From positions 115-64,114 of the forward strand of contig JACOZV010000002.1 in NCBI GenBank assembly GCA_016181175.1: a DNA stretch of 64,000 bases, given 5' to 3'. Shown piece by piece: positions 5,700 through 63,773 of the stretch. Under the pieces are notes generated by a model. That model saw only the letters and a program-made list of their open reading frames with translations. It did no database searches and had not been told where the DNA came from. Source of the stretch: Candidatus Yanofskybacteria bacterium (GTDB lineage: Bacteria > Patescibacteriota > Minisyncoccia > 2-02-FULL-40-12 > IGHO2-01-FULL-4-A). Both the position numbers and the translations under genes were made by a program. The stretch's first letter is position 1; each line of letters begins with the position of its first letter.

Positions 5700-5924
5700 A
5701 AAAAAATATTTGCTAAGCTAATTTTACCGTAGAAAGCGGGCAGGTTCTCGATATAGAGAATGGCATAAGTCCCGCCGAGGTATTAAGCCTTTTTTGGATC
5801 GAGCTACGGTTTAAAAGACCGTTTTTGTTTTAAAAATGAATCCCGTACGAAGTCCGAAATATTATTTCGGCAGAAACCGGAGGTTTCTTACTTCGTTCGG
5901 GATGCAGCAGCTACTTCATACGGG
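5700..5924 (+). promoter_or_regulatory. Structured 5' leader of rplJ-rplL (candidate L10-leader autoregulatory RNA). It contains an inverted-repeat element (5840-5903) and an 8-codon uORF.
   Basis: 225-bp ORF-free region directly upstream of rplJ with several hairpins. The uORF ATGCAGCAGCTACTTCATACGGGATGA (5902-5928) has a stop that overlaps the rplJ ATG (ATGA). Confidence 0.35.
5840..5903 (+). repeat. Inverted-repeat element ATCCCGTACGAAG...CTTCGTTCGGGAT, a short member of the CCCGWACGA IR family
   Basis: 11-bp arms with one conserved central mismatch flanking an internal hairpin CCGAAATATTATTTCGG. The arms share the ATCCCGTACGA / TCGTTCGGGAT core with the elements at 8993-9118 and 34488-34628. 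Confidence 0.5.
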
Positions 5925-6422
5925 ATGAAATCAAAAACACAAAAAAAAGAAGAACTGGCAAAGCTAAAAGACAAATTGGCAAAAGCTAAGATTGTAGTAT
6001 TTTCTTCTTTTGCCAGAGATGGTGAAAAGGGTTTGAATGTCGCGGAAATGAGGAGATTAAAAAATGAACTCCGGGTAATTAACTCGGAATATTTGGTTGA
6101 GAAAAAAACACTGCTTGACAGGGCGTTAAAAGATGTCAAAAGTGAAATTGATGTTTTTCAGTACCAGGGTTCGTTGGGTGCCGCTATCGGATATGGAGAC
6201 GGACAAACGGTCGCCAAGACAATTTATAGTTTTGCGAGGAAAAGCCCGGCATTGAAGTATTTCGGTGCCATATGGAACGACAAGTTCTTGGATCTCGCGC
6301 AATTTATTGAATTTGCCAAGCTGCCGTCAAAAGAGGTTATGATTGCAAGATTGCTGGGCATGATGAAGTACCCCTTGCAAGCCTTAGCGATAACATTAAA
6401 ACAAATAGCAGATAAAAAATAA
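5925..6422 (+). CDS. rplJ: 50S ribosomal protein L10
   Basis: 165 aa, L10-like; immediately upstream of L7/L12. Confidence 0.9.
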   Translation: MKSKTQKKEELAKLKDKLAKAKIVVFSSFARDGEKGLNVAEMRRLKNELRVINSEYLVEKKTLLDRALKDVKSEIDVFQYQGSLGAAIGYGDGQTVAKTIYSFARKSPALKYFGAIWNDKFLDLAQFIEFAKLPSKEVMIARLLGMMKYPLQALAITLKQIADKK

Positions 6423-6460
6423 AACTAATTTTATAATTTTTAATTTTATAATTTTATAAA

Positions 6461-6506
6461 TAATTTTTAATGTTTAAAAATTAAAACATTAAGATTTATT
6501 TAAAAA
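6461..6506. repeat. AT-rich intergenic repeat (copy a; reverse orientation) with the hairpin core TTAATGTTTAAAAATTAAAACATTAAGATTTATTTAAA
   Basis: Reverse complement of the TTTAAATAAATCTTAATGTTTTAATTTTTAAACATTA motif found at 10893-10975, 14045-14130 and 63690-63770. Lies in the rplJ-rplL spacer. Confidence 0.55.
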
Positions 6507-6513
6507 CTAAAAA

Positions 6514-6930: not shown

Positions 6931-6980
6931 AATCAACTAACTAAAAATCCGCCGAAAGGCGGATTTTTAGTTAGTTGATT
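6931..6980. terminator. Bidirectional rho-independent terminator (23-bp perfect stem, GAAA loop)
   Basis: AATCAACTAACTAAAAATCCGCC-GAAA-GGCGGATTTTTAGTTAGTTGATT lies between convergent rplL and the minus-strand gene 6979-8994. Confidence 0.75.
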
Positions 6981-8994
6981 ATTTGATTGTCCAAATTTTA
7001 TTGTCTGCCGAGAGTATCCAGATAGTGCCGTCGGGAGATATAGAAATGTCTTGTGGCGTGCCGACGGTGTCAAGTTTGTATGTTGTCTTGATTTCACCTG
7101 TTGTTTTGTCAAAAATATAAACTCTTTTGTTGGCTTTATCTGTTTGATAAATGAATGCCGAATCCTTAGAGGTGAAAATGCGGCTGCCTGAAGCAGGAAT
7201 CAGCTTAAGGTCCGACTCGCCAACTTTCTCACCCTTGAAGTATTTGAACAATTTTCCCTCACTTGTGAGTGCATAGATGTTGCCGTCGGCAGTTATGGAT
7301 AGCAGATTGGCACTTTGATCACTATTGGACCAGCCAGTTCGTTTTGTGCCGCCCGTTGCTGCATCGGCATATTTGTAAATAATGTTTCCCGAGAGTGTAT
7401 AAAGATTGTTTTCATACAGAATAGCATCGACTGCTGGTGATGCATCCTTTAATGAGTATTCACTCATTTTTTTAGATTCCAAATTGTAAACTCCAAAAGT
7501 TTCCGAACCGTTAAACAACAAGATTCCTGATGGAATGCTAAACAAAAATTGCGGTATTATCTTAAACTGACTCAAATTAGAATTTTCATTTGGAGTGACA
7601 GACGACACGATTCCATCGGAATCAGTCAAAAAAGCCAGATCGCCAGCTGCTGTTATAAAGTTTGCTTTGAAATTTTGATTTTGAACCGTCGGATCAGCAA
7701 AAAGTACCGGTTCCTTATTACTGGCGTGATCCAGGCCATCCAGTATCTGGTTTATTTGTTGTTTTGTATCATCGGCTTTTTTTCCGGAAATATCAGTCAG
7801 GCTTACCAGTGACGCTTGGAGCAATGATCTCGCGTCTCTTAAGTTGTTTTGAGTTATGCGTGATTCCGCAAGTTTCAGGTTTTCGCCGGCTTGTTTAATG
7901 ATATTTTTCTCTGTGCCGGAATTGCCCCCAGTTTTCAATAAGACGAAAGCCAAAATTGGTATTAAAACAATTACCGATAATGCAATAAAACTGTGACGGT
8001 GAGCACGATTGTTTAATTTACCGATTAATCCCAGCTTTTTAATGGTGTTCAAAAGCGGTGTAAAAATATTAACCCTTTTGCTAACCAAAAATTCTGCGGG
8101 TATAATTCTTGACTGTTCCGGCAATTCTTGCAAGGAAACAGATTTGGTCGGTTCCTCGTTTAACAGTTGGTTTTGGTTTTCTTTTTGAACAGCGGCTGAA
8201 TTTGGAGAGTTAGTAGTAAGTGATGCCGCTAATTTATCAGATGGCCCGTCAGTTTTTTCGCTTTTGATTTGGACTGGCCTGATTGTTTTGGGGGCCATAG
8301 CTGAAATTGGTATCTCTTTTATTTCGCGTATGTCCATGTGGACGCCGCAACAAGAAAAGTTGGTGGCATTGGCCGCAAGGTGGGCGATTTTTTGACCGAA
8401 TTCGTCCTGGCCATCTTTAACAAAAATGTCATTTAACTGTTTCTCTCTTGAAGTTATGGATCTAAACGGAAAATAAGCAAAAATTTTGTCGTTTGGCTGT
8501 ACTTTGCCAGAAATAATATTTGAAAACTGTTTTTCTCCCTCCGCATCTTTGCTGAAAAGCTCTATGTTGTTGAGGATATCTATATATCTGCCGTTGCGCG
8601 CCAAGGCTATTTTAAATTTGCCCAACCTTGAGATATAGATATTGTCGCCGGATATGGCCGCTAGGCCGATATCCAATTTGAAATTTTTATTTTGGAAAAA
8701 ATCATCCAGAACCTCATTGAGTTTTTTAAGTGTTCGTTCAAAGGAGCCCTTGGCGTTTTGTTCGCGGAGAGAATACTCGGAATAATATTCCCTTTTTGCC
8801 AAAGACGAAATCAGGCTTACAACATAGGCAAGATTTTCGTCAGCATACTTAATGTGTCCCAGGATAAAAAGTGAACCCAGCATTTTTTCCTGCCCGTTTG
8901 CGCCCTGGTAAGACAAAACATCAAAGTGAACGTTGCCCCCGCTGTTTTTATATATGAGTTCTTTTACGCTTGGTTTTAGAGTTATCTTTTCCAT
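6979..8994 (-). CDS. Membrane-anchored protein: N-terminal cytoplasmic domain, single TM, extracellular beta-propeller-like repeats
   Basis: 671 aa; a TM segment (FIALSVIVLIPILAFVLL) at mid-protein; the C-terminal ~300 aa carry repeated ...DG.IY... blades ending in DGTIWILSADNKIWTIK. Confidence 0.55.
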   Translation of the reverse strand: MEKITLKPSVKELIYKNSGGNVHFDVLSYQGANGQEKMLGSLFILGHIKYADENLAYVVSLISSLAKREYYSEYSLREQNAKGSFERTLKKLNEVLDDFFQNKNFKLDIGLAAISGDNIYISRLGKFKIALARNGRYIDILNNIELFSKDAEGEKQFSNIISGKVQPNDKIFAYFPFRSITSREKQLNDIFVKDGQDEFGQKIAHLAANATNFSCCGVHMDIREIKEIPISAMAPKTIRPVQIKSEKTDGPSDKLAASLTTNSPNSAAVQKENQNQLLNEEPTKSVSLQELPEQSRIIPAEFLVSKRVNIFTPLLNTIKKLGLIGKLNNRAHRHSFIALSVIVLIPILAFVLLKTGGNSGTEKNIIKQAGENLKLAESRITQNNLRDARSLLQASLVSLTDISGKKADDTKQQINQILDGLDHASNKEPVLFADPTVQNQNFKANFITAAGDLAFLTDSDGIVSSVTPNENSNLSQFKIIPQFLFSIPSGILLFNGSETFGVYNLESKKMSEYSLKDASPAVDAILYENNLYTLSGNIIYKYADAATGGTKRTGWSNSDQSANLLSITADGNIYALTSEGKLFKYFKGEKVGESDLKLIPASGSRIFTSKDSAFIYQTDKANKRVYIFDKTTGEIKTTYKLDTVGTPQDISISPDGTIWILSADNKIWTIK

Positions 8995-9118
8995 CCCGTA
9001 CGAGACAGGAAATGCTTTTTGAGCATTTCCGTATTATATAAGTTTATCTTGCTGGTATTGATAATCATAATTTTACAAAACGATTATTTGTGTTGCTCTT
9101 GCTGTCTCGTTCGGGATC
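8993..9118. repeat. Inverted-repeat element (copy 1 of the ATCCCGWACGAGACAG IR family). Its left arm overlaps the ATG of the gene 6979-8994.
   Basis: 16-bp arms ATCCCGTACGAGACAG ... CTGTCTCGTTCGGGAT with one mismatch; a 94-bp interior with its own hairpin GAAATGCTTTTTGAGCATTTCC. Both arms are identical to the copy at 34488-34628. Confidence 0.65.
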
Positions 9119-9210
9119 CATGCTTGTATTGATAATTGACACAGTAAAGCCGATTTACTACTCTTCCTAGTGTAATTCCCTACTCTAATTCTAATCCGAA
9201 AGATATAAAC

Positions 9211-9408
9211 ATGTCAAAACACAAATCCCTCTTCGAATTATTGTTTGGTTCAAAAACAAGAGTTAAAATACTCAAGTTTTTATTTCGCAACCCTAGCCTG
9301 TCATTTAGTGTTAAAGAATTATCAGTTCGGATACAAGAACCATTGTCGGTAGTAAATAAAGAAGTTAAAAATTTTACTGAAATCGGATTGATTAAATTTA
9401 AAAAATAG
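9211..9408 (+). CDS. Small winged-helix (ArsR/MarR-like) DNA-binding protein
   Basis: 65 aa; the motif SKTRVKILKFLFRNPSLSFSVKELSVRIQEPLSVVNKEV fits an HTH/winged-helix pattern. Confidence 0.4.
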   Translation: MSKHKSLFELLFGSKTRVKILKFLFRNPSLSFSVKELSVRIQEPLSVVNKEVKNFTEIGLIKFKK

Positions 9409-14034: not shown

Positions 14035-14140
14035 AATTTTTAATTTCCAATTTTTAATTTTTAAATAAATCTTAATGTTTTAATTTTTAAACATTAGAAA
14101 TTATTTATAAAATTATAAAATTAAAAATTATATATCAGCC
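14035..14140. repeat. AT-rich intergenic repeat (copy c)
   Basis: AAATTTTTAATTTCCAATTTTTAATTTTTAAATAAATCTTAATGTTTTAATTTTTAAACATTAGAAATTATTTATAAAATTATAAAATTAAAAATTA is nearly identical to copy d at 63664-63773. It abuts the truncated murF. Confidence 0.6.
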
Positions 14141-33754: not shown

Positions 33755-34489
33755 TTAATTCTCACTCAAAGAGTGGTCATGATGGTAAAACTTTGCTTCC
33801 CCGCCGTAAAGTGATGATAAATCTTTTGGGCTTAATACAGTATGTGGTTCCCCAAAACAAACCTGCTGCCTGTTAAGGCAAATGACAGTTTTAGCATATT
33901 TATAAACAACGTTCAGGTCGTGGGATATTAAAATAATCGTTAATTTTCTTTTGTCTTGAAGCTCGTGAAGGAGATTGTAAATAGTTTCTTCTCCGCCGAT
34001 GTCTATGCCAGAAGTTGGTTCGTCGAAAAGCAGAACGTCAGGATTATCAACCAGAGACCAGGCGACAAGAACTCTTTGGAATTCTCCGCCGGACAATAAA
34101 CCCATTTGGCGATTGAGAATATGGTGTTCAAGGTGGTGCTCGTGTTCGGAGTCTGTATTAATGCCAACGGAGGACAAGGCTTGCAGCATGTTTGTTTTGG
34201 ATGCCGACTTGAGACCAAGAAACTCCTTGACGCTTAGCGGCAGTCCTCGGTCAATGATGAGCTTTTGGGGTGCATAGGCAATTTTGAGTCCGGTTTCCCA
34301 ATTTATTTTTCCAGAATAGGGGACAAGTCCAAGCAAAGTGCGGAATAGCACGCTCTTACCTGAACCATTAGGACCGATTACGGCCAAAACCTCGCCCCTG
34401 TTCAGGGAAAAATTAATATTATCCAAAACCTTTTGGCCGTTAAATGAAACTGATAAATTTTCTACTTCAAGGACTCTTTCTTTTTCCAT
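33755..34489 (-). CDS. Metal ABC transporter ATP-binding protein (ZnuC-like)
   Basis: Walker A GPNGSGKS, signature LSGGEFQR, Walker B LLFDEP; His-rich HEHHLEHH insert. Confidence 0.85.
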   Translation of the reverse strand: MEKERVLEVENLSVSFNGQKVLDNINFSLNRGEVLAVIGPNGSGKSVLFRTLLGLVPYSGKINWETGLKIAYAPQKLIIDRGLPLSVKEFLGLKSASKTNMLQALSSVGINTDSEHEHHLEHHILNRQMGLLSGGEFQRVLVAWSLVDNPDVLLFDEPTSGIDIGGEETIYNLLHELQDKRKLTIILISHDLNVVYKYAKTVICLNRQQVCFGEPHTVLSPKDLSSLYGGEAKFYHHDHSLSEN

Positions 34490-34628
34490 CCCGTACGAGA
34501 CAGGATTAGGTTTAAATCTTTAAACCTTAAACCTAATCCGTATCTTTTAAGTTATCCCGTAAAAGAAAGCCTGGTTTGATTATTTGGTTTTGCTTATAAT
34601 ATAAACTCTTGCTGTCTCGTTCGGGATC
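34488..34628. repeat. Inverted-repeat element (copy 2 of the ATCCCGWACGAGACAG IR family). Its arm overlaps the ATG of the ABC ATPase gene.
   Basis: Arms ATCCCGTACGAGACAG ... CTGTCTCGTTCGGGAT are identical to those of copy 1. The interior carries its own hairpin GGATTAGGTTTAA...TTAAACCTAATCC. Confidence 0.65.
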
Positions 34629-34639
34629 CACAATAAAAA

Positions 34640-35524
34640 TTATAACAGATTTACTTTAAAATTGGGATGGCCTGCCAAAAATTCTTTTATATCCATTGGC
34701 TTGCCACCTTCAAGTTGCACTCTTTTAAATTTTGGGCGACCATTTTCCATTTCGGCGGCCAATATCTTTAGACTTATTTTTTTACCGTTTTTTTCAAGCC
34801 ATATAAACACGCCCGGTTCCGGGTTCAGAGCCCGTATTTTATTATATGTTTGTTCGGGGGTGTCGTTAGGTTTGATCTCCCCGTCTTCGGCCGTAAATTT
34901 TTTAGTAAAAGTTGCTTGTGTGTGGTCTTGCGGTCGCGGTTTAATTTTGCCGGATAAATAATCCGGCAAGGTTTTTATCAAAAGTTCCGCGCCTAATTGC
35001 CATATCTCTGCATTAATTTTGGGGAATAAGTCAATGCCGGATATTTTGTAATTTTCCGAAGAAATAATTGGTCCATGGTCTAATTCCTCGTCAATTTTCA
35101 TTATAGTAGCGCCAGATATTTTTTCTCCATTTAAAATAGCTGTTTGAACTGGTGAGGGGCCACGATATTTAGGTAGTAAAGAAGGATGAACGACCACCAT
35201 ACTATGCCCGGGCAAATTAAAAATTTCTGGCGGGATAAGTTTGCCATAAGCGGCAACGACACCGATATCTAATTTTAAATTATAAATTATAAATTTTAAA
35301 TCGGGATCATTTTTAAGACTAGACGGTTGTAAAACATTGAGGCCTAGTTTTTGTGCTGCAACCTTAATCGGCGGGGGAGTGAGGATTTGTTTGCGCCCAA
35401 CTGGCTTATCCGGCGTAGTAACAACTGCCACAATATAGTAGCCCGCCTTAACTAATGCTCCCAATACCGGCACCGCAAAATCCGCCGTCCCAAAGAAAAT
35501 TATTTTGGTTTTTGACTCTTGCAC
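34640..35524 (-). CDS. fmt: Methionyl-tRNA formyltransferase
   Basis: Formyl-transferase N-domain (IIFFGTADFAVP...) plus C-terminal domain; adjacent to def. Confidence 0.9.
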   Translation of the reverse strand: MQESKTKIIFFGTADFAVPVLGALVKAGYYIVAVVTTPDKPVGRKQILTPPPIKVAAQKLGLNVLQPSSLKNDPDLKFIIYNLKLDIGVVAAYGKLIPPEIFNLPGHSMVVVHPSLLPKYRGPSPVQTAILNGEKISGATIMKIDEELDHGPIISSENYKISGIDLFPKINAEIWQLGAELLIKTLPDYLSGKIKPRPQDHTQATFTKKFTAEDGEIKPNDTPEQTYNKIRALNPEPGVFIWLEKNGKKISLKILAAEMENGRPKFKRVQLEGGKPMDIKEFLAGHPNFKVNLL

Positions 35525-36147: not shown

Positions 36148-36607
36148 TTTGAGGTAGATTGTTATTTTTTTCTTTTACCGGCTTTTTACCCCGCACCTTT
36201 TCTGGATTATTGGATTCTTGATGCGTAGCATCCTGTCCAGAAAAGGTGCGGGGTTTGTAGGCAGATAAATAAAGGAATAATTTGCCTGGTGTCTCAATTT
36301 TTTTTGCTTGTTTTAATTCGGCGAATATTTTGTATGCGCGTGGCAAGCCGATATTTTTAATTATTCCCAAATACATTCCGAATTTTTTAGGTTCTCCGCA
36401 AAAATCGGATATTTCTTTAGCAAGGGCATGCCTTTCACTATGCAGGCCATGTTCAGGTTTTTTGATGAAATATTCTATTTTTTGAAGTCCGCCGTTCAAT
36501 TCGCCCTGCTGGATGCCACATTTGCTACATTTGCCGCCTATGACATCAAAGTCATGTCCAAATTTCTGGCCGTAGCAAAGAGCGTTTTTTTGGATATCTG
36601 TGGCCAT
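36077..36607 (-). CDS. Hypothetical protein with an N-terminal zinc ribbon and a basic low-complexity tail (the tail overlaps the def start by about 70 nt)
   Basis: CxxC...CxxC (CYGQ...CSKC); C-terminal KKPVKEKNNN...KKRRKDNA. Confidence 0.4.
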   Translation of the reverse strand: MATDIQKNALCYGQKFGHDFDVIGGKCSKCGIQQGELNGGLQKIEYFIKKPEHGLHSERHALAKEISDFCGEPKKFGMYLGIIKNIGLPRAYKIFAELKQAKKIETPGKLFLYLSAYKPRTFSGQDATHQESNNPEKVRGKKPVKEKNNNLPQNGNRKRTQKNTSQKIKKRRKDNA

Positions 36608-38088: not shown

Positions 38089-39432
38089 ATGTTAAAACTC
38101 TCTAGTAATTCCCACAAATTAAGCCGAGGGGTTTTAATTTTTACTTTGCTTGCTGCTTGTTATTTACTACTTGCAGCGCCCGTTTTTGCCCTTGACGATA
38201 CAAGTCCCGTTAGAAGTCAGACATCAGTAGCGATGTCTGCAGATCTGCAAGCAGATCTTACTTCTAACGGGACAAGTCAAAAAATCCTTGACCTGCGCAA
38301 ACAAATTGAAGAATTGACAAAGCAGGCGGAGCAATATAAAGGCACCATTGCGCAAAAACAAAAACAAGCGGATACTCTGAAAAAACAGATAGACATTTTA
38401 AATAATCAGATTTTACAACTCCAAACCAAGATAGTAATTACTGATCGTCAGGTTACTTCAACAAAACTTGAGATTGTGGACTTGGAAGGGCAGATATTTG
38501 ATGCCAGTGAAAAGATAAATAAACAAAAGTTGGCAGTAGGGGAGCTTCTCTTGTTTCTTTACGAGCAAGACAGGTTAAGCTTGCTGGCGGTATTGCTCAA
38601 AAGTCCGCGGCTTTCTGATTTTACCGACCAGGCGCACCAAGTCCAGAACTTAAACAATAAACTCGTAGGATTATTGACGGAGCTCAAGACGCAAAAAGAA
38701 GACTTGGAACAAGGTAAACAAAAGTTGGATTTGAAAAAGTCGGAACTCGAGGCGCTCAACAGTAAACAAGTAAGCCAAAAAATTGCATTAAGCGGCAATA
38801 AAGTTGGCAAAGACGTGTTATTGGCGCAAACAAAGGGCCAGGAAGCCAAATATCAGCAACTTTTAAGCAGTGTAGAAAAGAAAAAAGCAGAATTTTTCGC
38901 TGAGTTGCAAAAATTTGAAGCAGAAGCGGTAAAAAGCGGAGCTTTTATTGTTCACGTTACCGCAGATTCGGTACCGATGCGTGGCAGTAAAATTTTCCAG
39001 TGGCCATATGACGACTATTATCTCACCCAAGGTTATGGTATGACGGCATACGCGCGGCGCGGCGCCTACGGAGGAGCGCCTCATAATGGGATAGATATTG
39101 CGGCCGGTTATGGCACACCTATCAGGCCAGTTGCGAGTGGCGCGATATTGGCAAGCGGTTTTAACAATGGTTTCGGCAACTGGGTAGCGGTTAGGCACGA
39201 CCGCGGTCTCGTGACTGTTTACGCCCACATGCGCAGTCCAAGCGGTCTTGTTAACGGGACGCCTGTAACAGCTAACTCAATAATCGGCTACGAGGGCTCA
39301 ACCGGTAATTCAACCGGTTCGCACTTGCACCTCTCACTGTACCGTGATTTCTTCACTTATATCAACGACAAAAACGGCCAACTATACTTCAACTATTTCG
39401 ATGGCTCCCTAAACCCACTTGACTATTTATAA
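38089..39432 (+). CDS. M23-family peptidase with an N-terminal coiled coil (EnvC/NlpD-like murein hydrolase)
   Basis: Signal/TM, a long coiled coil, and a C-terminal LytM domain (HNGIDIAAGYGTPIRPVASG, HLHLS). Confidence 0.8.
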   Translation: MLKLSSNSHKLSRGVLIFTLLAACYLLLAAPVFALDDTSPVRSQTSVAMSADLQADLTSNGTSQKILDLRKQIEELTKQAEQYKGTIAQKQKQADTLKKQIDILNNQILQLQTKIVITDRQVTSTKLEIVDLEGQIFDASEKINKQKLAVGELLLFLYEQDRLSLLAVLLKSPRLSDFTDQAHQVQNLNNKLVGLLTELKTQKEDLEQGKQKLDLKKSELEALNSKQVSQKIALSGNKVGKDVLLAQTKGQEAKYQQLLSSVEKKKAEFFAELQKFEAEAVKSGAFIVHVTADSVPMRGSKIFQWPYDDYYLTQGYGMTAYARRGAYGGAPHNGIDIAAGYGTPIRPVASGAILASGFNNGFGNWVAVRHDRGLVTVYAHMRSPSGLVNGTPVTANSIIGYEGSTGNSTGSHLHLSLYRDFFTYINDKNGQLYFNYFDGSLNPLDYL

Positions 39433-39895: not shown

Positions 39896-39947
39896 TTATG
39901 TCCGGCCGAAAAGCCGGTTTTATTTTTATTTATCCACACCCCCATCT

Positions 39948-39972
39948 TACTTAGGAGTTGAACTCCTAAGTA
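39948..39972. repeat. REP-like 25-bp palindrome (left flank of the HUH transposase gene)
   Basis: TACTTAGGAGTTGAACTCCTAAGTA. Confidence 0.7.
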
Positions 39973-39993
39973 AAGTCAGATAGAATAACGCAA

Positions 39994-40641
39994 ATGATAA
40001 AACCCAAATTTACAACTGGCGAGTTTTACCACATATTCAATAGGGGAAATAATAAGAGGGCGATTTTTTTGAAACCATTTGATTTAATGAGGTTTTTGCA
40101 AAGTATGCAGGAGTTTAATACCAAAGAACCAATTGGCAGTATTTATATCAATTCATTCAAAAACGAAGAACTTAGAAGTTCAACTCCAAAGTTAGAGAAA
40201 ATAGTTGATTTTGTATGCTACTGTTTAAACCAAAATCATTTCCACATTCTTATTAAACAAATAGCGGATGGTGGTATAATTAAGTTTATGCATAGACTTG
40301 GTACTGGATACACAAACTATTTTAATGGAAAGAATAAAACTAGCGGAGCTTTATTCCAGGGGAGATATAAAGCTATCCATGTAGATACTAACGAGTACCT
40401 ACTTTATTTAAGTGCCTACATTAATCTGAATTACAAAGTCCACCAACTTAGGAGTTCAACTCCTAAGTTGTGTAAATCAAGCTGGGAGGAATACACTAAT
40501 GTCATGAATGGATTTTGTAATAAAAAAATAATTATGTCGCAGTTTAACAGTGCGGCAAATTATAAAGATTTTGCCGAGGAAGCTTTAAAAATAATAAGAA
40601 ACAGAAAGGATATGGAAAAATCTCTAAACCTTATCACTTAG
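39994..40641 (+). CDS. tnpA: HUH Y1 transposase, IS200/IS605 TnpA-like / REP-associated tyrosine transposase (RAYT)-like
   Basis: HuH motif HFHILI, catalytic Tyr context GALFQGRYK, N-terminal YHIFNRGNNKRAIF. Flanked by identical palindromes. Two internal copies of the palindrome are translated in-frame as LRSSTPKL (aa 59-67 and 152-160). The stop codon lies inside the right palindrome. Confidence 0.7.
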   Translation: MIKPKFTTGEFYHIFNRGNNKRAIFLKPFDLMRFLQSMQEFNTKEPIGSIYINSFKNEELRSSTPKLEKIVDFVCYCLNQNHFHILIKQIADGGIIKFMHRLGTGYTNYFNGKNKTSGALFQGRYKAIHVDTNEYLLYLSAYINLNYKVHQLRSSTPKLCKSSWEEYTNVMNGFCNKKIIMSQFNSAANYKDFAEEALKIIRNRKDMEKSLNLIT

Positions 40642-40659
40642 GAGTTGAACTCCTAAGTG
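40635..40659. repeat. REP-like 25-bp palindrome (right flank)
   Basis: CACTTAGGAGTTGAACTCCTAAGTG. Confidence 0.7.
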
Positions 40660-40682
40660 AGTGATTTTGATACAATTAGTGC

Positions 40683-47577: not shown

Positions 47578-47632
47578 ATCTAGATCACATAAAAAACATG
47601 GTTATAACCATGTTTTTTATGTGATCTAGATT
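47578..47632. terminator. Bidirectional terminator (about 24-bp perfect hairpin)
   Basis: CATCTAGATCACATAAAAAACATGG-TTATAA-CCATGTTTTTTATGTGATCTAGATT lies between convergent rpmA and rplI. Confidence 0.75.
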
Positions 47633-55217: not shown

Positions 55218-56121
55218 TTATTTTTCCGAACCTTCCTTTATAAAAATCTAATACCCCAGCTAATATTGCTTTTGATATTTCAACATTGTGCCTCAATATA
55301 ATTTTAGTGAGCTGTTTAATTATAATAAAAAATGACCAAAATGGCAAGGAGAATTTAACCCAAAACGGCCCATTTTTACAGTTAAATAAGTGAGCATTTC
55401 TGTAGTGGTAGTGGAGTAATATGGGTGCTCCCAATGATGAGGTAGACGACGATTGTTTATGATGAATCAGTTCTTCAGGCACAATTTTGAGCTTGTAGCC
55501 CGCTTTTTGCGCGCGCAGGCAGTAATCAGCATCTTCAAAATAGAGAAAATAGCGTTCATCAAACAATCCAATCTTTTCTAAAACTTCTCGTTTGATAAGC
55601 ATACAAGCTCCTACAACATACTTAGTGGTTGAACTACTAAGTGCACTTAGTAGTTCAACCACTAAGTGCGAAAGTTCGGGTTTTAGCCAGCCAATTTTGC
55701 CGCCATAAATTATTTGGTTACCCTCGTTTATTGCGGGTCCTGCAATGCCTATTTGCTGATCAGATTCTGTTGCTTCTACTAATTTTGATAACGCATCCTT
55801 TCTAATTGTCGTATCGGGGTTCAATATCAAGACATAATCAGCGCCATGCTCTAACGCATGTTTGATACCCAGATTATTTCCGCCAGAATAACCAGAGTTG
55901 TAAGAAGTAGTAAGTAAAAAGTAACAAGTAGCAGAACTTGTATTGCCTGTTTTTTCTATCCAATTTCTAACCTCGTCGATTGCATTGACATCTGAGCCGT
56001 TATCCACTATAATTGTCTCATAGTTCTGATAGTCCAGTTCTTTAACAGAATTAAGGCACCTAATGGTGTCTTGAGAATTATTATATTGGAGGATGACAAT
56101 GAAAACTTTAGATTGATTCAT
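55210..56121 (-). CDS. Family 2 glycosyltransferase with an in-frame REP-like palindrome doublet
   Basis: GT-A N-terminus (VFIVILQYNNSQDTIRCLNSV). The 46-bp palindrome at 55621-55666 is translated as LVVELLSALSSSTTK. Confidence 0.75.
   Translation of the reverse strand: MNQSKVFIVILQYNNSQDTIRCLNSVKELDYQNYETIIVDNGSDVNAIDEVRNWIEKTGNTSSATCYFLLTTSYNSGYSGGNNLGIKHALEHGADYVLILNPDTTIRKDALSKLVEATESDQQIGIAGPAINEGNQIIYGGKIGWLKPELSHLVVELLSALSSSTTKYVVGACMLIKREVLEKIGLFDERYFLYFEDADYCLRAQKAGYKLKIVPEELIHHKQSSSTSSLGAPILLHYHYRNAHLFNCKNGPFWVKFSLPFWSFFIIIKQLTKIILRHNVEISKAILAGVLDFYKGRFGKINA
55621..55666. repeat. Perfect 46-bp palindrome made of two inverted REP-like units (CTTAGTGGTTGAACTACTAAG / CTTAGTAGTTCAACCACTAAG). 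It is related to the RAYT-flanking palindrome CTTAGGAGTTGAACTCCTAAG.
   Basis: CTTAGTGGTTGAACTACTAAGTG|CACTTAGTAGTTCAACCACTAAG; the second half is the exact reverse complement of the first. Confidence 0.8.
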
Positions 56122-63663: not shown

Positions 63664-63773
63664 ATTAGGAATTAATTTTTAATTTCCAATTTTTAAATAA
63701 ATCTTAATGTTTTTAATTTTTAAACATTAGAAATTATTTATAAAATTATAAATTATAAAATTATGTTTAAAAG
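63664..63773. repeat. AT-rich intergenic repeat (copy d) in the rpsK-rpsD spacer
   Basis: CAAATTAGGAATTAATTTTTAATTTCCAATTTTTAAATAAATCTTAATGTTTTTAATTTTTAAACATTAGAAATTATTTATAAAATTATAAATTATAAAATTA is nearly identical to copy c. Confidence 0.6.

Follow-up and report, generated by a model that had tools for sequence, protein, structure and literature searches.

The Correia (NEMIS) elements of Neisseria are small (~100-160 bp), non-coding and dispersed; they are bounded by terminal inverted repeats, carry short target duplications and are co-transcribed with neighbouring genes, so that the repeats can form a stem in the mRNA. Such stems are cut by RNase III (PMC10969869). Rickettsia palindromic elements (RPEs) are palindromic repeats tolerated in essential genes, for which in-frame insertion has been reported (PMC10969869). 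The IS200/IS605 (PATE) and REP-RAYT systems are also very small, with hairpin-defined ends, oriented insertion by a short target motif, and miniature derivatives. Among homing endonuclease genes, those of the T4 seg type place a GIY-YIG gene between host genes without disrupting them. A minimal GIY-YIG domain of ~95-107 residues makes up the UPF0213 proteins 1zg2 and 1ywl, which are described as proteins of housekeeping or repair whose role is unknown; both have been classed as bacterial proteins belonging to the Slx1 family, whose eukaryotic counterpart cleaves branched DNA structures (PMC1564403).

The elements analysed here were recognized in a 64-kb stretch of DNA (the window) from a MAG of Candidatus Yanofskybacteria, a member of the Patescibacteria, and share features with each of these systems. 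They resemble the Correia elements in size, lack of coding capacity, dispersal, terminal repeats and target duplications; yet they derive from a GIY-YIG nuclease cassette and not from a DDE-type insertion sequence, and instead of lying anywhere between genes they sit on start codons, with the ATG rebuilt and an internal stem, P2, that is conserved and covarying. One copy in the window lengthens an M23 peptidase gene by 24 in-frame codons, as an RPE might; however, only 1 of 57 elements here is inserted in this way, start-codon insertion being the rule, and host clade, sequence and coding relative are all different. Unlike IS200/IS605 and REP-RAYT elements, ours hold no internal Y1/HUH transposase gene, their inverted repeats are truly terminal and their flanks vary. 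The coding relative is wedged between host genes like a T4 seg gene, but its 94-residue product has no DNA-binding domain and belongs to the Slx1/UPF0213 branch, not to that of I-TevI/UvrC, and homing genes lack the terminal repeats, flank duplications, dozens of unrelated sites and non-coding derivatives seen here. It shares the conserved motifs of the UPF0213 proteins, which, in contrast, are not described from repeat-bounded mobile cassettes. No published description of these elements was found in open-access full text. In our judgement the repeats probably mark the termini of MITE-like, non-autonomous elements, the parent of which is a very small mobile cassette found widely in Patescibacteria (CPR).

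Results

Four structured elements in the window

The core CCCGWACGA occurs six times in the window, against 0.38 expected, and the six matches are arranged as three inverted pairs; none of 100 shuffled sequences contained six. Two long copies have identical 16-bp arms, as the preliminary description had claimed: ATCCCGTACGAGACAG lies at 8993-9008 and 34488-34503, and CTGTCTCGTTCGGGAT at 9102-9117 and 34612-34627. A shorter pair is located near rplJ (5840-5852 and 5891-5903). The motif ACGGGATG, said to recur at all three gene starts, is indeed confined to them within the window, and in both long copies the arm does supply the AT of the ATG of a minus-strand gene, one encoding a 671-residue protein (6979-8994) and the other an ABC ATPase (33755-34489). 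The long-copy arms are complementary at 15 of 16 positions and are predicted to form a helix (stem P1), with fold z-scores of about -6 in both copies.

Other parts of that description needed revision. Each interior has its own hairpin, as had been noted, but the interiors are not unrelated: they follow a common plan (5' arm, CAAGAG, ...ATAC, and a GGA...TCC hairpin that stacks on the 3' arm) and represent two subfamilies. The interior of copy 1 is 85% identical to that of a copy at an unrelated gene in another locus (L126), and that of copy 2 is 77% identical to one in locus L131. The central mismatch between the arms, thought to be conserved in all copies, is a trait of a subfamily (38 of 56 elements), while other subfamilies pair perfectly. 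The short relative near rplJ is real but was incompletely delimited, being a composite with a second 3' arm, and the count of three missed a fourth copy inside the M23 peptidase gene (Table 1). None of the four copies contains a transposase or nuclease ORF.

Table 1. Positions of the elements and associated features in the window.
Feature	Position	Strand	Remarks
L10 leader (RF00557)	5709-5836	+	Below curated threshold; ends exactly at ancestral ATG
30-codon short ORF from ancestral rplJ ATG (5836-5838)	5836-5928	+	TGA stop overlaps present rplJ ATG (ATGA)
Micro element at rplJ	5840-5903	+	64 nt; arm helix around two small hairpins; insertion at ancestral rplJ start codon
Remnant second 3' arm of F-type element, GCAGCAGCTACTTCATACGGGAT	5904-5926	+	Gives AT of present rplJ ATG (5925-5927)
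Copy 1, ORF-less A-type mini element	8993-9117	-	125 nt end to end; on start of 671-residue gene
Copy 1, 3' arm, CTGTCTCGTACGGGAT (minus strand)	8993-9008	-	Last AT plus G8992 = present ATG
Copy 1, P2 hairpin	9008-9030	-	Stacked on 3' arm; counterpart of long-range P2 stem in full-length GIY-YIG cassettes
Ancestral ATG (9119-9121) with 18-codon short ORF, MDPERDSKSNTNNRFVKL*	9065-9121	-	Runs into element; orthologue starts align here
Copy 1, 5' arm, ATCCCGAACGAGACAG (minus strand)	9102-9117	-	5' strand of stem P1
Promoter-like site TTGACA-18-TAGAAT	9188-9217	-	Upstream of copy 1; consensus match only
Copy 2, ORF-less B-type mini element	34488-34627	-	140 nt; between fmt (34640-35524) and ABC ATPase gene
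Copy 2, arms	34612-34627 and 34488-34503	-	
Copy 2, P2 hairpin	34503-34539	-	
Copy 2, internal degenerate second 3' arm	34554-34569	-	
Ancestral start codon of ABC ATPase gene, now GTG	34629-34631	-	Preceded by TGTTATAAT, extended -10-like box noted by eye
Fourth copy, micro element in M23 peptidase gene (38089-39432)	38204-38273	+	70 nt; fold z-score -9.4

The composite at rplJ can be resolved by comparison with other loci. A near-identical copy of its micro element is nested inside another element in locus L137, the remnant that follows matches the 3' ends of F-type elements in four loci (L181, L124, L137 and L162), and the upstream region aligns with an empty rplJ start in locus L140. We also considered whether the inverted repeat at 5840-5926 could be an L10 leader or a mimic of one. 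This was rejected, as it lies outside the RF00557 match, which at 36.5 bits (E=1.2e-4) stays below the gathering score of 44 and has the UUUACCG...GCCGAGGUAU motifs and a terminator-like 3' hairpin. The same model gave this hit upstream of the window rplJ copy and none in loci L030 or L140. On the elements themselves no known RNA family reached its gathering score, and permissive searches returned noise (cow-rumen-3, miRNA and HrrF models).

The fourth copy contributes the 24 in-frame codons TSPVRSQTSVAMSADLQADLTSNG to the M23 peptidase and is flanked by a repeated ACAAGT; the 24 residues are absent from 15 of the 20 closest orthologues aligned. For copy 1, exact empty sites, which the preliminary description had proposed to look for, were found in orthologues of the 671-residue gene at three loci (L178, L179 and L180), reading ...ATGGAAAA... 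where the window has ATGG-element-GGAAAAG.

Insertion on start codons with short flank repeats

Related loci were scanned for further elements, and 57 were found in a scan that is unbiased but covers only loci collected beforehand; a metagenome scan in which the 3' arm plus G was fixed in the pattern gives a biased sample. In a scan of a genome collection with the 16-nt arm, chance matches in high-GC genomes dominate, the informative loci being those from CPR MAGs or those with a pair of inverted matches. Paired arms around either a GIY-YIG ORF or a mini interior were found in CPR MAGs and groundwater contigs. Viral contigs gave one arm match, GC-rich and without a partner arm, which we regard as due to chance, with no sign of phage carriage.

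The flanks are identical over 4 nt in 43 of the 57 elements and over 3 nt in six more, a few do not match, and the R base of the flank matches in 50 (permutation p<1e-4). The repeat is 4 nt long (TGRA) if the element ends are TCCCG/CGGGA, and 2 nt (GR) if they are ATCCCG/CGGGAT; its sequence differs with the target (TGAA, TGGA, CAAG, TTAA). As many as 53 of the 57 elements end on a gene start. The ancestral (A/G)TG is left on the left side, while a new ATG arises on the right, where the end ...CGGGA meets the duplicated TG(R)A, and the host protein is therefore unchanged. The MEK N-terminus common to both long-copy host proteins results from a TGGA target with A-rich codons after it and does not reflect co-regulation.

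The elements sit at genes of unrelated function (rplJ, rplX, rpmC, ssb, recR, pgk, an ABC ATPase, membrane proteins), the mini subfamilies are common to unrelated host genes, and presence and absence alternate between relatives at rplJ, recR, pgk and other genes. One insertion is nested (locus L137) and one lies in frame in the M23 gene. Copies can be dense, with four in the 64-kb window and four in the 9.5-kb locus L124. The preliminary description had proposed a genome-wide search for the arm; many copies, dispersed at unrelated genes, were found elsewhere in CPR.

Since 16-bp inverted repeats here surround short AT-rich segments beside gene starts, and TATAAT-like strings occur in the interiors, one might think of invertible promoters acting as phase-variation switches. 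We consider this scarcely credible. The orientation of the interior relative to the host gene is constant in all mini and F-type copies examined, none being inverted; interiors of 38-109 bp would offer a recombinase very little to invert, no recombinase is encoded in the gene flanks inspected around the elements, and the same repeats also enclose a coding ORF.

The full-length relatives encode a predicted GIY-YIG nuclease

Full-length members of the family are ~277 nt long and consist of a single ORF for a 94-residue, stand-alone GIY-YIG nuclease of the Slx1/UPF0213 type. All full-length copies examined have arms made up of the opening and closing codons of this ORF. ATG AAT CCC GAA CGA GAC AG forms the 5' arm and CTG TCT CGT ACG GGA TGA the 3' arm, with the TGA stop overlapping the ATG of the host gene. 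The P2 stem pairs the segment coding for DLRKRF with that coding for RLKRFL and is stacked on the 3' arm. In the window copies the P2 loop, and hence nearly the whole ORF, is gone, but P1, P2 and their junction remain. In fact, the window has no GIY-YIG ORF, and a tblastn search of it with the GIY-YIG protein matches only 9-12 arm-encoded residues.

The ORF matches Pfam PF01541 (E=4e-12) over the catalytic domain alone, and the Y-x-Y, YTG, R...H and YYE motifs are kept in 115-119 of 120 homologues. The nearest solved structures, judged by sequence match only, are the UPF0213 entries 1zg2 (E=1.6e-5) and 1ywl (E=8e-4). NCBIfam has no curated model for this protein, which gene callers label 'excinuclease ABC subunit C' or 'hypothetical protein'. 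A search at E<=1e-5 yielded 1926 homologue clusters; the family, with proteins clustered at 90% identity, numbers at least 1,900 clusters. The gene is under purifying selection; its dN/dS of ~0.1, a ratio that does not give the substrate, shows that the cassette protein, a predicted nuclease, is functional. The copies are old (pS ~0.6), and identical GIY-YIG proteins (P0078, P0001 and P0032 were looked up) always occupy one genomic site, giving no instance of recent movement. Public assemblies break within the element.

Both stems are conserved by compensatory change

Covariation across relatives, another check that the preliminary description had suggested, is seen in both P1 and P2. Of the alignment cells in the two stems, 95.8% are paired, compared with 31-47% when the partners are slid; nine arm or P2 pairs have changed on both sides, and none of 500 shuffles reached the observed covariation score. 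Arm pairing is kept over 18 full-length elements and 57 elements in total. The terminal peptides of the nuclease follow suit, NPERD occurring with LSRTG, NPVRD with LSLTG, NPVRAS with LALTG and IPLEL with LTLTG, and third-codon variation is 0.05 in the arms versus 0.27-0.29 elsewhere.

Such conservation might also be expected of a cis-regulatory RNA helix or a protein operator shared by a small regulon and governing its translation initiation, the second possibility raised in the preliminary description. Conservation is higher in the arms and P2 than in the interior, the predicted fold buries the AT of the ATG in the arm helix, and use of the promoter-like site that lies upstream of copy 1 would place both arms within the mRNA. 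The non-Watson-Crick cells of P1 comprise 12 G.T and no A.C on the sense strand; however, this excess is inflated by the 3' arm having been fixed in the search pattern, and sense and antisense minimum free energies do not differ (Wilcoxon p=0.67). Against a regulon stand the lack of any functional relation among the host genes, the close orthologues of the same genes that do without the element, its presence within the M23 coding sequence and inside another copy, the nuclease ORF enclosed by the same ends, and the L10 leader, which forms a separate structure upstream of the rplJ copy. A shared operator or regulatory RNA is thus very improbable. At the RNA level, the arm helix may play a role in host-gene translation.

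Discussion

The first suggestion of the preliminary description, that these are MITE-like elements, is supported. They are small and without an ORF, have terminal inverted repeats and direct repeats of the target, occur as dispersed copies that are present in some relatives and leave empty sites in others, and have a coding relative with the same ends; nested and in-frame insertions complete the picture. A retron-like or ribozyme structure and translational bypass were also considered and dismissed, as they do not fit the empty sites, the flank duplication and the coding relatives.

The mechanism of their movement has to be approached through the full-length relative, whose GIY-YIG nuclease would mobilize the elements in trans. 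It would probably cut where the folded P1-P2 junction has its base, and ligation or repair by the host would finish the move. The known cleavage of branched DNA by eukaryotic Slx1 would fit, by analogy, such a folded-junction substrate.

Whether the nuclease is itself the mover is a separate question. The elements could be mobile and yet be moved by an unrelated transposase in trans, or spread between genomes by no other means than homologous recombination or homing; the GIY-YIG nuclease would in that case act as a homing enzyme, serve the host or be carried along as a passenger. The window does contain an IS200-like Y1 transposase gene (39994-40641; Pfam Y1_Tnp E=1e-6), and strong structure combined with a single insertion orientation is reminiscent of single-strand hairpin transposons. 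The Y1 gene, however, is flanked by its own, different palindromes, and with no Y1 gene inside the elements we rejected their membership in the IS200/IS605 or REP-RAYT groups. As to recombination or homing, the element and ~70 nt of pgk are 100% identical between loci L144 and L152 whereas the rest of pgk is ~77% identical, a pattern that could be a co-conversion tract of the T4 seg kind or an assembly chimera; mosaic SNPs in co-occurring strains lie only just left of the element, and identical copies are never found at two sites. On the other hand, pure homing cannot account for dozens of unrelated genes that carry insertions with duplicated flanks, and an unrelated mover has to contend with arms that are the first and last GIY-YIG codons in all full-length copies examined and covary with the ORF. 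A free-standing homing endonuclease gene was likewise rejected, given the many unrelated hosts, the terminal repeats and a protein made of the catalytic domain only. We therefore regard movement by other means as unlikely.

A more far-reaching proposal, which we put forward tentatively and with some doubt, is that the 277-nt cassette transposes autonomously and represents a new class of transposon, with the 94-residue Slx1-like nuclease as its sole protein recognizing its own folded P1-P2 junction. At 277 nt it would be far below the size of any known insertion sequence, and a 94-residue nuclease without a DNA-binding domain is not a known type of transposase. Under this proposal the nuclease would recognize the folded junction instead of a DNA sequence and make short staggered cuts at the boundaries of element and flank and at (A/G)TG-R-A start sites, the host completing the process by ligation or repair. 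Such a mechanism would explain why the flank repeat is small and non-palindromic and the orientation fixed, and likewise the precise regeneration of the ATG and the survival of insertions in ribosomal-protein and other essential genes.

Host translation appears to be maintained in two ways. In the full-length copies, in 8 of 33 mini elements and at the window rplJ, the likely route is termination and reinitiation at the ATGA overlap, while at window copies 1 and 2 ribosomes coming from the ancestral start would likely unwind the 5' arm and so free the ATG.

If this interpretation is true, CPR/Patescibacteria genomes harbour a large, unnoticed family of ultra-small selfish elements, which would have solved the problem of inserting into a compact genome by landing on the start codon, their own ORF taking over the host initiation site and translation being returned to the host gene via the ATGA overlap or the folded helix. 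Predictions of start sites and 5' UTRs would be wrong wherever a mini copy sits, assemblies would break at the repeats, and the nuclease would be misannotated by gene callers. In the GIY-YIG nuclease there would be a candidate new transposition chemistry that can be tested, and in the elements a natural system in which to study ribosome initiation behind a structured insertion of 120-280 nt.

Anatomy of the elements

The preliminary description had placed inverted repeats on three start codons, and the positions it gave for the long and short arm pairs were confirmed exactly. Its core motif, CCCGWACGA, has six matches in the window, forming three inverted pairs, against 0.38 expected, and none of 100 shuffles reached six or more. 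In both long copies the final AT of the arm does supply the first two letters of a minus-strand gene's ATG; the 671-aa protein encoded by one of them gave no Pfam match. Read as RNA, the minus strand of copies 1 and 2 is predicted to form an arm helix and an adjoining hairpin (z-scores near -6), and the arms of copy 1 may be transcribed, given the strong promoter-like site upstream of it.

Features of the window
Feature	Position	Strand	Remark
RF00557 match	5709-5836		L10 leader model
ATG at end of leader match	5836-5838		
rplJ composite	5840-5926	+	
Micro element	5840-5903		64 nt; after ancestral rplJ ATG
Shorter arm pair	5840-5852, 5891-5903		
Second 3' arm, F-type	5904-5926		rplJ copy
Present rplJ ATG	5925-5927		
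AT-rich near-palindromes	6446-6513, 14051-14118, 63690-63744		type TTAAAACATTAAGATTTATTTAAAAA
671-aa protein gene	6979-8994	-	start at copy 1
Copy 1	8993-9117	-	125 nt
Copy 2	34488-34627	-	140 nt
Arm ATCCCGTACGAGACAG	8993-9008, 34488-34503		
Arm CTGTCTCGTTCGGGAT	9102-9117, 34612-34627		
ABC ATPase gene	33755-34489	-	after fmt, before ABC-3 permease; start at copy 2
Internal 3' arm, degenerate	34554-34569		
Imperfect 45-nt inverted repeat	36162-36280		core CCCCGCACCTTTTC...GAAAAGGTGCGGGG
M23 peptidase gene	38089-39432		
Fourth copy	38204-38273	+	inside M23 peptidase gene
Y1 transposase gene	39994-40641		IS200-like
Palindromes ACTTAGGAGTTGAACTCCTAAGT flanking Y1 gene	39945-40663		
Perfect 54-bp palindrome	47578-47631		ATCTAGATCACATAAAAAACATGGTTA, then its reverse complement
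Palindrome doublet of Y1 system	55620-55667		

A coding relative

A search of species-representative genomes with the 16-nt arm gave mostly chance hits, but four CPR MAG loci share the architecture of the window copies. At L062 (Candidatus Yanofskybacteria), the arms bound a complete 94-aa ORF, MNPERDSKS...RRFLSRTG*, in which the 5' arm encodes NPERDS and the 3' arm LSRTG and the stop; this TGA overlaps the start codon, ATG, of the gene that follows, and the protein matches Pfam GIY-YIG (E=4e-12). Scanning metagenomes for the 3' arm plus ATG returned 45 groundwater contigs with ~50 elements in two size classes, full-length cassettes of 277 nt and ORF-less minis of 122-138 nt, the latter with several interior subfamilies. 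The GIY-YIG ORF, which has no counterpart in the window, is under purifying selection (dN/dS about 0.1, pS about 0.6), and its third codon positions hardly vary in the arms (variability 0.05, against 0.27-0.29 elsewhere). The interior of copy 1 is 85% identical to that of the L126 copy, which sits at an unrelated gene, and that of copy 2 is 77% identical to the L131 copy; such identity to minis elsewhere argues that minis multiplied in their reduced form instead of each decaying separately at its own site. Contig L124, a 9.5-kb ribosomal-protein operon, carries two F-type and two C-type elements on four gene starts, including rpmC and rplX, and its F-type pair shows a compensatory arm change (CAAAG/CTTTG versus CGAAG/CTTCG).

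Several mini subfamilies (copy 2 and the interiors of L030 and L063) hold a degenerate second 3' arm, which suggests several rounds of insertion into the ATGRA site regenerated by each element, with deletion afterwards.

A covarying folded core

Covariation, proposed earlier as a check, was assessed in 18 aligned full-length cassettes, five of them from other arm subfamilies reached via protein homologues, by counting pairs in two helices: P1, formed by the arms, and P2, which joins GGAAACGCYTYAA, ~95 nt into the element, to TTRARGCGTTTCC directly before the 3' arm. Pairing was found in 95.8% of cells, against 31-47% with slid partners; nine pairs are altered on both sides, and the covariation score was reached by 0 of 500 shuffles. 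Only ATCCCG/CGGGAT is invariant, while the inner arm is subfamily-specific (ACGAGACAG, TTAGAGAT, TTAGAGCCAG, TTACATCCAG, TTAGAGTTA) and complementary in every case. Among 120 homologues the terminal peptides covary accordingly (NPERD-LSRTG, NPVRD-LSLTG, NPVRAS-LALTG, IPLEL-LTLTG), and P2 appears as F-K 71 times, L-R 21 times and F-R never. Minis keep P1 and shorten the 150-nt P2 loop to 3-9 nt, their P2 hairpins having at least six different sequences, all paired. On the sense strand of P1, G.T exceeds A.C by 12:0, an excess biased by the search pattern.

Insertion at start codons

Synteny around the 671-aa gene (65-aa gene, 671-aa gene, rplL, rplJ) is conserved. The empty sites sought since the preliminary description exist: two orthologues (71% and 67% identical) read ...ATACATGGAAAAAATAACTCTAAAACC where the window has ...AAGCATGG[ATCCCG...CGGGAT]GGAAAAGATAACTCTAAAACC, and a third carries a different element subfamily at the same point. 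For rplJ, recR, pgk, the ABC ATPase and two membrane proteins, too, some orthologous starts are occupied and others empty. Two Logan contigs of the 671-aa gene (L176, L177), from independent assemblies, begin inside the element, 53 nt before the ATG; such ends are what a repeat that breaks assembly graphs should produce.

A scan for TCCCG...CGGGA pairs, with flanks unconstrained, covered ~396 kb of fetched CPR loci and yielded 57 distinct elements of 59-280 nt, and in 53 of these a long ORF starts at the element end. The 4-nt flanks are identical in 43, mostly TGAA or TGGA, and 3-nt flanks in six more; in 50, the purine following TG is shared by the two sides (permutation p<1e-4). On the left, 44 elements have an ATG and three a GTG; on the right, every codon is ATG, so the right-hand A belongs to the element. 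ATGRA occurs 263 times in the window but opens only 12 of its 51 long ORFs, so sequence and start position are both favoured. Orientation relative to the host gene is constant in mini and F-type copies. Host genes, named from N-terminal sequences, include rplJ, rplX, rpmC, ssb, recR, pgk, hpf and sua5; they are unrelated, which rules out the regulon under a shared operator that had been suggested.

The fourth copy, with ACAAGT repeated on its flanks, lengthens the M23 peptidase by 24 in-frame residues placed behind the signal peptide. Of the 20 closest orthologues in the alignment, 15 lack these residues and five carry a diverged version. In two orthologues, P0251 and P0260, a related insert stands between IN...IN instead of TS...TS, a hint of independent insertion at the same position.

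At rplJ, the L10 leader model RF00557 scored 36.5 bits, below its gathering threshold of 44 (E=1.2e-4), with the hallmark motifs matched; it had no match in the corresponding regions of L030 and L140. The match stops exactly at an ATG that aligns with the rplJ start of an empty relative. The insert is an open 30-codon ORF throughout, whose TGA overlaps the present rplJ ATG and which would keep rplJ coupled to the ancestral initiation site.

Other repeats were also seen. Two of the ACTTAGGAGTTGAACTCCTAAGT palindromes interrupt the Y1 gene (Pfam Y1_Tnp) in frame, each encoding LRSSTPK; gene and palindromes together resemble a REP-RAYT-type system, distinct from the start-codon elements. One AT-rich near-palindrome lies between rplJ and rplL, and the ends of the imperfect 45-nt repeat are unlike those of the start-codon family.

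Discussion

The anatomy, duplication, empty sites, covarying helices, functional nuclease ORF in relatives and constant orientation are established here; the GIY-YIG enzyme as mover of the elements is our proposal. The nearest solved structures to the 94-aa protein, UPF0213 entries 1zg2 and 1ywl, are placed by a phylogenomic survey in the bacterial Slx1 family, the minimal form of the GIY-YIG domain; Slx1 itself cleaves in a structure-specific manner (PMC1564403). Such an enzyme would suit element ends that keep their pairing while drifting in sequence, and the flank repeat, precise excision and fixed orientation would all follow from short staggered cuts that leave a non-palindromic overhang. 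In homologue look-ups identical GIY-YIG proteins always occupied a single genomic site, and the copies are old, so that current mobility is unproven. Between L144 and L152 the element and ~70 nt of pgk are 100% identical, the remaining pgk being ~77% identical, and co-occurring strains (L194-L203; tpiA, GIY-YIG, pgk) have mosaic SNPs restricted to the final 240 nt of tpiA, left of the element; either homing-like conversion or an artefact of assembly could account for this.

Full-length copies join the host gene by an ATGA stop/start overlap. A short ORF in the full-length frame occurs in 11 of 33 minis, and in eight of these, including the rplJ composite, it stays open to ...LSRTG* on ATGA. 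In the other 25 of the 33, including copies 1 and 2, the short ORF ends 27-123 nt before the ATG, and their 3' arms contain no Shine-Dalgarno sequence; most simply, ribosomes from the ancestral start might open the 5' arm and so make the ATG accessible. Nor do the three host genes have a Shine-Dalgarno sequence at their ancestral starts (34629-34650, 9119-9140, 5815-5838). The ancestral GTG of copy 2 lies 7 nt after TGTTATAAT, a spacing that suggests leaders may be very short or absent in this organism.

The window copies behaved as MITEs, the other idea first offered, in everything that sequence can test, and failed the tests for an L10 leader, regulon operator, inverton, classical homing endonuclease gene or IS200/REP-type element. 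They resemble in part Correia elements, which are co-transcribed inverted repeats, and in one case Rickettsia palindromic elements, which insert in frame (PMC10969869). Yet, unlike either, this family derives from a GIY-YIG cassette, sits at start codons with the ATG regenerated, and has a second conserved helix. A full-text literature search, whose coverage excluded most subscription journals, returned no published description of such elements, and there is a substantial chance that their coding parent represents a new class of transposon.
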